DNA of 64,000 nucleotides. It comes from Eledone cirrhosa (taxonomy: Eukaryota). Position 1 is the first letter of the stretch. Each line of letters opens with the position of its first letter. A program made the translations under genes and the position numbers. Below the pieces are notes generated by a model, which saw only the letters and a list, made by a program, of their open reading frames with translations, did no database searches and was not told the origin of the DNA. The stretch covers positions 201,252,001 through 201,316,000 of the forward strand of contig OZ024740.1 of the NCBI GenBank assembly GCA_964016885.1, given 5' to 3'. Positions 37,451-38,591 of this stretch are shown here, in pieces.

Positions 37451-37826
37451 TATTGAGTGGTTTGATGTCTCACTCTTGTTTATTATCTCAAAGACCATTT
37501 AGATTTTATCTCAGAATGATTGGAAAGGAAATCTATTCTCTACACCAATCATCTTAATTGGTACAAAATGGTCTCCGGCCCAGGAGGTAAATGTATGCTA
37601 CACTTTACCACTTATAATGATCACATCCAGTATCTTATGTATATAAGATGAAAAAATGTGTATGGGTGTGCGTGTATAAATATATATATATATATACATA
37701 CATATATATATATATATATATATATATATATATATATATATATATATATATATATATATATATATATATATATATATATATATATATATATATATATATA
37801 TTTATATATATATGAAAAAGTTTGTC

Positions 37827-37892
37827 CTCATCAGTGGCCATCCAACCGTCGTAGGCATTTCGTCGCATTAAAGGCCATATACCTCAGGTTGG
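37827..37892 (-). ncRNA. Candidate non-circularly permuted hammerhead (copy B)
   Basis: ccaacc ug agguaU A uggccuu uaaugcga c GAA Augccu acgac gguugg auggcca CUGAUGA g. Confidence 0.68.
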
Positions 37893-38436
37893 TGCGAGCA
37901 ACGGCTAAAAAAAGTCGTTGGGACACGTAAATAAGGGGGACGCTAGGGTAAACAAACAAAATGGTTTAAGCAACAGAAAGTGATGAGAAGAAAGAAACAA
38001 GTCCCAGATTTCTATGAATATAAATTCGGTGGAATCGTGAACGAGAGAATAAAGACCATCAAACCTGGTTGAAATGTGAGCAAGGAAGGAATTTCGCACA
38101 GGTCTAACGGGAGGAGGAAGGGGTCTGGTCTGCGAATTCGGTAAACATAAGTTCTGTGAAGTCGCAGACGAGAGAGAGAGAAAAAAAATTCATACCGGCT
38201 TGGCCAAGTGCCCGCGAGAAAAGGATTACGGACAGGTCAAACGGGAAGAAAGGGGAGGAGGAGAGGTAGTGAGTGAAAGGCGAGAAAGAGGCTAACAGAG
38301 AGAGAGAGACTGCTAGAAGGGGTAAAGACACAAAGAACGAAACAGACTGGTGGCAGCGGAGGAAAAAATATATGTGTAAATATGATAATAATGGAGCTGC
38401 GGCGCTGCAAATGGGTTACATATGAAAAAGTTTGTC

Positions 38437-38502
38437 CTCATCAGTGGCCTTCCAACCGTCGTAGGCATTTCGTCGCATTAAAGGCCATATACCTCAGGTT
38501 GG
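38437..38502 (-). ncRNA. Candidate non-circularly permuted hammerhead (copy C)
   Basis: As copy B but with a perfect 7-bp stem I uggccuu/aaggcca; G10.1-C11.1. Confidence 0.7.
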
Positions 38503-38591
38503 TGCGAGCAACGGCTAAAAAAAGTCGTTGGGACACGTAAATAAGGGGGACGCTAGGGTAAACAAACAAAATGGTTTAAGCAACAGAAAGT

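Follow-up and report, generated by a model that had tools for sequence, protein, structure and literature searches.

The window analysed here, a 64,000-nt stretch of the Eledone cirrhosa genome, contains on its minus strand a short insertion that lies between a TA microsatellite and an unrelated repeat, and two further copies of related sequence lie elsewhere in it. The principal features are the following:

37807..38591, minus strand: focal insertion of 1.29 monomers, 5'-truncated at 38591, with its 3' end running into (TA)n
37878..38487, minus strand: predicted 610-nt monomer, lying between predicted cuts after A17 in hammerhead numbering (38488 and 37878)
37675..37813, no strand assigned: (TA)n target microsatellite, meeting the fixed 3' end at a short AUAU microhomology joint
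38591..38682, plus strand: unrelated high-copy repeat at the 5' junction, from a search of the animal's own genome
10506..11053 (approximately), minus strand: sub-monomer copy of a sister family, using a second 3' end, from sequence comparison
25666..25776, plus strand: short 5'-truncated copy with a diverged clade-3 ribozyme of the same build

An earlier note on this DNA described a tandem unit with an exact 610-bp period, and the period is real: positions 37807-37981 and 38417-38591 are 98.9% identical over 175 nt, and among offsets of 600-619 only 610 stands out (234 of 400 matches, vs 91-124). The tandem is a partial one, of 1.29 units, rather than an array, and the length of 610 nt applies to the focal copy, the family monomer being about 621 nt (619-626 nt in 20 of 21 complete monomers). 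The unit has no credible ORF, as had been noted: reading both strands round the circularised sequence, ATG-started frames reach 52 codons at most; (TA)n does adjoin the left end of the insertion (37675-37813), and the joint falls about 70 nt past the predicted cleavage site. A dispersed copy that had been said to start at a different point of the unit is present at about 10506-11053 and is 82-85% identical, but it belongs to a sister family, and its different start reflects the family's use of two fixed 3' ends rather than free permutation of the ends. Its ribozyme, at 10572-10673, has compensatory changes in stems I, II, and III. Four ribozymes of the same build are found in the window, of which the clade-3 copy at 25666-25776 is much more diverged; its predicted cleavage is after 25718, and it ends in TA near 25805. 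The repeat at the 5' junction gave 1504 candidates, the junction or a point beyond it being the start of 39 of the 40 matches scored, and from its TIR-like look we take it to be the end of a mariner-like element.

Family scans covered the 3.0 Gb of the animal's own genome, in which the ribozyme pattern has 12,128 exact matches and its reversed control none. A generic S-G-C descriptor applied to 873 kb gave 213 matches, all of the same family, and none in the reversed sequence. The focal family is represented genome-wide by 731 exact matches of a 32-base motif, and a search with the unit returned 3025 candidates, with 41 near-full monomers at 95-100% identity among the 40 scored. Monomers delimited by adjacent ribozymes are 610-626 nt long in the focal family and 445-817 nt in other families; one array, of nine head-to-tail units of a sister family of about 740 nt, is at L063 (G000:C1:43916500-43926400). 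The clade-2 monomer measures about 750-820 nt, and exact matches to this clade number 274; clade 3, whose copy in the window lies at 25.7 kb, has 1771 candidates. Each tandem non-coding unit carries one hammerhead, and the units are dispersed and in high copy, as is characteristic of non-LTR retrozymes. The unit contains no B box and one weak A-box-like site as Pol III signals. A rod-like monomer was rejected (49% paired as a circle; z of -3.8 when linear). Viral contigs gave no match to the ribozyme and metagenome contigs gave 0 and 2, the latter two being rejected by eye for lack of the stems; contigs from X1 and X4 (two of the four runs) contained repeat variants only. The datasets listed as containing the sequence include no RNA run, which says nothing for or against expression.

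The rearranged hammerhead proposed in the earlier note is borne out, and it sits on the minus strand. Read along that strand it comprises block S (a stem III strand, the UH site, and stem I), a short linker, block G (GAAA and stem III), and block C (the stem I partner and CUGAUGA). Rfam did not detect it, no ribozyme family being among the 102 matches in the window or the 8 in the unit. The elements of the two copies in the focal insertion, all on the minus strand, are predicted as follows:

38434..38534: upstream ribozyme copy (alignment and predicted fold)
38531-38534 and 38434-38437: P1 5' strand, and P1 3' strand plus the stem II pair
38509-38530: hairpin P2
38504-38507 and 38473-38476: P3 5' and 3' strands
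38497-38502 and 38452-38457: P4 5' and 3' strands
38494-38496 and 38458-38463: kink-turn, non-bulged and bulged strands
38489-38493 with 38464-38468: stem III
38481-38487 with about 38445-38451: stem I
38468-38471 and 38438-38444: core GAAA and core CUGAUGA
37824..37924: downstream ribozyme copy, with identical elements shifted by 610

Seven helices were counted: a closing helix (P1), a hairpin (P2), P3, P4, stem III, stem I, and a one-pair stem II. P3 joins an upstream strand to the strand before GAAA, and P4 ties stems I and II together. The structure was assessed in an alignment of 24 copies spanning the families, picked from 132 matches with motif-internal truncations left out. Pairing was found in 95.3% of 816 cells, against 30-45% in slid controls, and 17 of 34 pairs had changes on both sides, with at least one such pair in each of the seven helices. 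Double-change cells numbered 83 against 22.9 after shuffling (0 of 500 shuffles), in a test that ignores the relatedness of the copies; for that reason clade 2, which keeps the arrangement with differing stem sequences, is the stronger argument. With its stems wholly rewritten it is 93.3% paired (0 of 500 shuffles), and four pairs show double changes within the clade; clade 3 adds swaps in P1, P3, P4, I, and III. In the focal family, P1 pairs only if the register is shifted by one base. These observations leave little doubt that an RNA structure is conserved.

The hallmarks of a hammerhead are present, namely CUGANGA, GAAA, and UH with covarying stems I and III, although conservation of the core is partly built in because the scan filters required CUGANGA, GAAA, and non-G at 17. 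Stem II retains no more than a single direct pair, with its opposite strand supplied from upstream, and P1 and P2 complete a four-way junction. The direct pair is standard in 109 of 127 clade-1 and clade-3 copies (C-G 41, U-A 39, A-U 15, U-G 14, other 18), and in about 10 of 18 in clade 3. Clade 2 has none: just past the core lies a base that covaries with P1, and the one preceding GAAA is paired within P3, or else a 2-bp stem after a bulged U competes. In ViennaRNA, which cannot score pseudoknots or a kink-turn, the nested part of the focal ribozyme scored -14.4 vs -28.8 kcal/mol for a competing fold; minimum-energy folds of the 10.5-kb and clade-2 copies contain P2 and stem III together with either P4 or P1. 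Canonical type I, II, and III folds were rejected since the stems fail to pair in those orders. Inspection by eye also led us to discard a twister-like interpretation of the UAA linker; Rfam reports no twister in the window or the unit. On balance the ribozyme probably cleaves itself.

In clades 1 and 3, what separates stem III from P4 is a 3-nt bulge, after which come G-A and A-G or A-U pairs. Over 127 copies, position 1n is A in 123, 2b is A in 126, 1b is G in 117, and 2n is G in 103 and U in 21; L2 is a purine in all 127. By sequence and secondary structure, this is the kink-turn consensus in two of the three clades (1 and 3), a plain bulge of 5-6 nt replacing it in clade 2. The predicted motif resembles Kt-7 and Kt-23, as described in the available text of PMC2790904, in its 3-nt bulge, its G-A and A-G or A-U pairs, the C-G next to the bulge, and the variable 3b-3n, and the same source treats G or U at 2n as natural variation; the consensus seen here includes the Kt-23 variant. 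It differs from both in being embedded in a hammerhead and in its loss from clade 2. If formed, the kink-turn would supply a sharp bend between stem III and the I-II helix, the link that Eckert et al. (2023; PMC10085705) describe, in the part of their paper available to us, as hard to reconcile with the crystal structure.

The closest published relative is the type SGC hammerhead, which has a non-circular S-G-C block order, found there in metatranscriptomes only, and comprises HRIMA-1 and a variant (Eckert et al. 2023; PMC10085705). According to the accessible text of that paper, rearranged hammerheads come from metatranscriptomes and metagenomes and have no known host, having been found in no known organism's genome apart from one GCS candidate. 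Published type SGC molecules run from CUGAUGA through a bulged U, a stem II strand, and one base to a strand of the I-II helix, and no insertion of more than two bases between A9 and stem II is reported there (PMC10085705). The ribozyme described here shares with them the S-G-C order, the short linker between stems I and II, and a stem I-II helix that follows a stem II strand and a single unpaired base; the UUCA linker and the U after CUGANGA are found in clade 2 as well (PMC10085705). It departs from them, as they are described there, in that the stem II partner and the I-II helix strand (P3, one base, P4) lie 5' of block S, so that block C, in which type SGC has CUGANGA run on into a stem II of at least two further pairs, is interrupted, its partner strand standing upstream as P3. 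CUGAUGA runs into P1; viewed as a ring, the molecule takes up P1, P2, and all the remaining monomer between A9 and stem II. A kink-turn is predicted to link stem III to P4; the words "kink" and "k-turn" occur 0 times in the supplement of PMC10085705. As published, the type SGC descriptor needs a contiguous stem II and, judged by eye, would miss the split form (PMC10085705). Our literature searches turned up no report of the split-stem-II architecture; one may exist in closed papers or in the supplements of preprints.

As an element, the repeat is most like the non-LTR retrozymes of animals, a class defined by hammerheads of type I, with the order C-G-S (Cervera and de la Pena 2020; PMC7229834). 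Like them, as far as the accessible descriptions go, it forms non-coding tandems with one hammerhead each in thousands of copies (PMC7229834), with a monomer within the reported 51-972 bp (PMC7229834; Li et al. 2026, 10.64898/2026.07.22.740005), and for them a circRNA template and PLE mobilisation have been proposed (same sources). It differs in having the S-G-C order in place of type I, in matching no Rfam hammerhead, and in that no homology to a PLE pLTR was found, one intact PLE family having been compared. Only one of nine predicted Xenopus retrozymes cleaved, according to the available part of a preprint (Li et al. 2026, 10.64898/2026.07.22.740005). The element thus works like a non-LTR retrozyme and its ribozyme like a type SGC hammerhead, each lacking one defining character of its class. 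An LTR retrozyme was rejected on the internal fixed 3' end, the tandem and inverted copies, and the S-G-C order, and a MITE or DNA transposon because 5' ends spread over more than 1000 nt in place of two fixed TIR ends; the fixed ends with TIRs that the earlier note had named as evidence against a retrozyme are not seen.

The ends of insertions were surveyed at loci around the first 30 of the 731 focal-family matches, where 32 ribozyme copies resolved into 29 segments, three of which each held two exact copies. All 29 segments have their 3' end either at +71 (13) or at +115 to +120 nt (16) past the predicted cleavage site, and 3' ends join a microsatellite, nearly always (TA)n, at AUAU-type microhomology. 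Their 5' ends lie anywhere from 0 to 1111 nt upstream, and an inverted 5'-truncated piece is frequent. The earlier expectation of permuted partial multimers stands for the partial tandems and fails for the permutation, since 3' ends are fixed at two sites and only 5' ends vary. A fixed end downstream of the ribozyme on its own strand implies that the ribozyme strand was the template. Fixed 3' ends with truncated 5' ends, partial tandems, inverted 5' copies, and microsatellite targets are the anatomy of PLE insertions (Craig et al. 2021; PMC8557442, in its available text), including non-autonomous Chlamys elements such as MRC1, and every one of these characters is found here, as expected of a non-autonomous PLE. 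The present element differs from Chlamys and MRC1, as they appear in that source, in having no ORF, a non-canonical ribozyme, and no 3' end found in common with an autonomous family. From this anatomy we infer mobilisation by a PLE, and to that extent the non-autonomous, ribozyme-bearing unit of the earlier note is upheld.

The 5' ends bear on the form of the template. If the templates were linear monomers, with priming 70-120 nt in from the 5' end, cDNAs would stop at the cleavage site, which is not seen: among 70 clade-2 copies (the first 30 matches and their neighbours, plus 40 further listed matches, of 274) none has a 5' end within 10 nt of the site. Genome-wide break patterns show no footprint, with 38 matches at the site vs 47 at a control 3 nt away; true 5' ends, checked in 30 loci each with five inversions re-scored by eye, numbered about 24 at the site vs about 15 at the control, or about 30 vs 24 when scaled. 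Junctions exactly at the predicted site were found twice (L276 and L157), a number not above chance. The lack of a stop indicates that templates were continuous across the site, as ligated circles or uncleaved multimers, and it fits uncleaved RNA equally well as circles. A stem I allele that splits the family 42:39 is common to both repeats in 21 of 23 tandems and in 20 of 20 inverted pairs (some insertions contributing several rows), a concordance compatible with copying around a single circle or from a uniform source. The two discordant tandems, one of them at the focal locus, are left unexplained by a single monomer circle and point to occasional dimer templates or template switches.

Circular templates are, in our judgement, rather more probable than the alternatives. 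The chief of these, which we consider unlikely, is a PLE-mobilised element whose ribozyme cuts inefficiently in vivo, or does so only when regulated, with uncleaved read-through multimers serving as templates and the fold acting mainly as a recognition structure for the PLE protein. The want of a 5'-end pile-up, the 2 discordant tandems in 23, the more stable competing fold of the focal copy, and the weak or absent first stem II pair would all agree with this. Set against it are a catalytic core kept across three clades despite wholly rewritten helices, the recovery of only 110 matches when stem III position 15.2 is freed vs 12,128, the 21 concordant tandems, and, for what a number at chance level is worth, the two junctions exactly at the site.

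The earlier note pointed to Penelope proteins encoded nearby as possibly mobilising the unit in trans, and this needs correcting: the pieces at 32.8-35.9 kb are short broken fragments, and the intact PLE family lies elsewhere. The PLE fragments of the window, at 32833-33616 and 34402-36177, are both broken, the second consisting of two inverted 629-nt arms (98%) around an RT piece. An intact young family, with a 784-aa frame in a 3.53-kb tandem unit, is found at L109-L111 (G000:C2:51275300-51285200 and others). We assign the frame to PLEs from its motifs and from atlas neighbours that carry GIY-YIG, RVT_1, and HTH_animal families; it has no match in Pfam or PDB. Tails of this family end in (TA)n, often beside ribozyme elements, and similar 3' tails occur in the window as inverted pairs (30290-30400 and 31874-32018). 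The intact PLE has its own canonical-order type I hammerhead, in which the core UUGAGAA is, by eye, a U3-A8 swap of the usual C3-G8 pair. The unit shows no sequence homology to it, the best short-word E being 0.53. At L157:1708-1832 (minus strand) an inverted PLE 3' tail is joined, with no TA run between, to a clade-2 copy whose 5' end falls exactly on the predicted cleavage site; this single case is possibly a mixed-template insertion.

Proximity to PLEs was scanned for 305 ribozyme copies at 219 loci with three PLE protein queries. None of the 305 copies is a terminal repeat of a coding element; that the unit always is one was a condition that the earlier note had named as refuting its reading. 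A same-strand PLE fragment lies within 2.5 kb upstream at 6 of the 219 loci, none forming a recurring unit. Candidate autonomous partners at L061 and L062 (spacings of about 2.9 kb) were rejected as separate insertions in a segmental duplicate, and those at L064, L127-L130, and L297 as adjacent or nested insertions. We consider it improbable that the unit serves as a pseudo-LTR in some autonomous PLE yet to be found, with short copies that are 5'-truncated or internally deleted, although Xenopus retrozymes are described in the available preprint text as deriving from PLE pLTRs (10.64898/2026.07.22.740005) and only three protein queries were used. Several families contain whole monomers of 445-817 nt arranged head to tail, a 9-mer among them; upstream homology between unrelated loci ends within about one monomer or tandem; and the intact PLE carries a different, canonical-order hammerhead. 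TA runs separate ribozyme copy from PLE fragment at five of the six loci, and the sixth, L297, where PLE coding remnants lie upstream with no TA run between, pairs a 5'-truncated copy with a broken PLE lacking the endonuclease. A non-PLE LINE (L1/Tx1-, RTE-, or R2-like) as the mobilising element, with the repeat behaving like a SINE or a satellite, can be all but dismissed: such frames dominate the window, and L1 also shows 5' truncation and inversion, but here the 3' end falls inside the unit, insertions are as a rule partial tandems, no poly(A), common LINE tail, or B box was found, and the target matches that of PLE tails, often in the same (TA)n.

The observation in the earlier note is confirmed and its interpretation partly supported. 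We regard as the likely explanation a protein-free tandem retroelement with a likely self-cleaving permuted hammerhead, likely copied by a PLE into (TA)n, and probably from circular RNA. Read-through transcripts of partial tandems would contain two ribozymes, each of which, on the covariation, forms stems I and III, helix P4, and the P1/P2/P3 junction that replaces most of stem II. Cleavage after A17 would release a monomer of about 620 nt (445-820 in sister families), which would be ligated into a circle. The DNA joints show cDNA, presumably made by a PLE enzyme, to be primed in nicked (TA)n at AUAU, 71 or about 120 nt past the cleavage site; synthesis runs back through the cleavage site and stops at random, giving the sub-monomers, 1.x-mers, multimers, and inverted 5' pieces observed.

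More tentatively, and with chances that we put somewhat below even, the S-G-C ring has been opened between A9 and stem II, with the body of the element carried on the four-way junction below the catalytic core and the kink-turn providing the bend that the permuted topology calls for; the ribozyme would be active, binding of a host L7Ae-family protein at the kink-turn would set cleavage against ligation of PLE-copied circles, and this would be the first hammerhead of non-circularly permuted type to be amplified in the genome of an animal. The family adds a further rewired non-circularly permuted hammerhead, repeated at over 12,000 sites within a single animal's genome. This form contradicts the rule, stated in the accessible text of PMC10085705, that the CUGANGA block is inseparable from stem II, and the predicted kink-turn would be a concrete answer to the question raised there of how stem III is linked to the I-II helix. 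Because standard descriptors and Rfam miss the ribozyme, animal genomes and PLE-type families scored as hammerhead-free may need to be searched again. Dozens of natural variants are ready-made compensatory tests, and thousands of insertions with mappable ends make the role of the hammerhead in PLE-type retrotransposition directly testable.

Several other repeats were encountered. Another TA-targeting repeat, with a canonical-order hammerhead core and perfect inverted junctions, occurs at L143:2678-2872, L157:387-580, and L157:1784-1976. At 13051-18448, 45657-60050, and 38735-39653 the window has several L1/Tx1-like copies with endonuclease and RT and other non-LTR retrotransposon copies, nested and inverted. 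An abundant short repeat of about 200 nt, which we presume from its look to be SINE-like, forms a 2.9-mer tandem at 40720-41321 and recurs at 23761-23904, 25227-25419, 60698-60896, 61700-61897, and 63072-63237. An open frame of 470 aa at 42580-43992 (plus strand) has no Pfam match; from its motifs we take it to resemble a CRE-type retroelement in its C-terminal half. Inverted repeats that are nearly perfect, and that have TA or AT-rich runs on their flanks, lie at 30604-31044 and 44524-45005.
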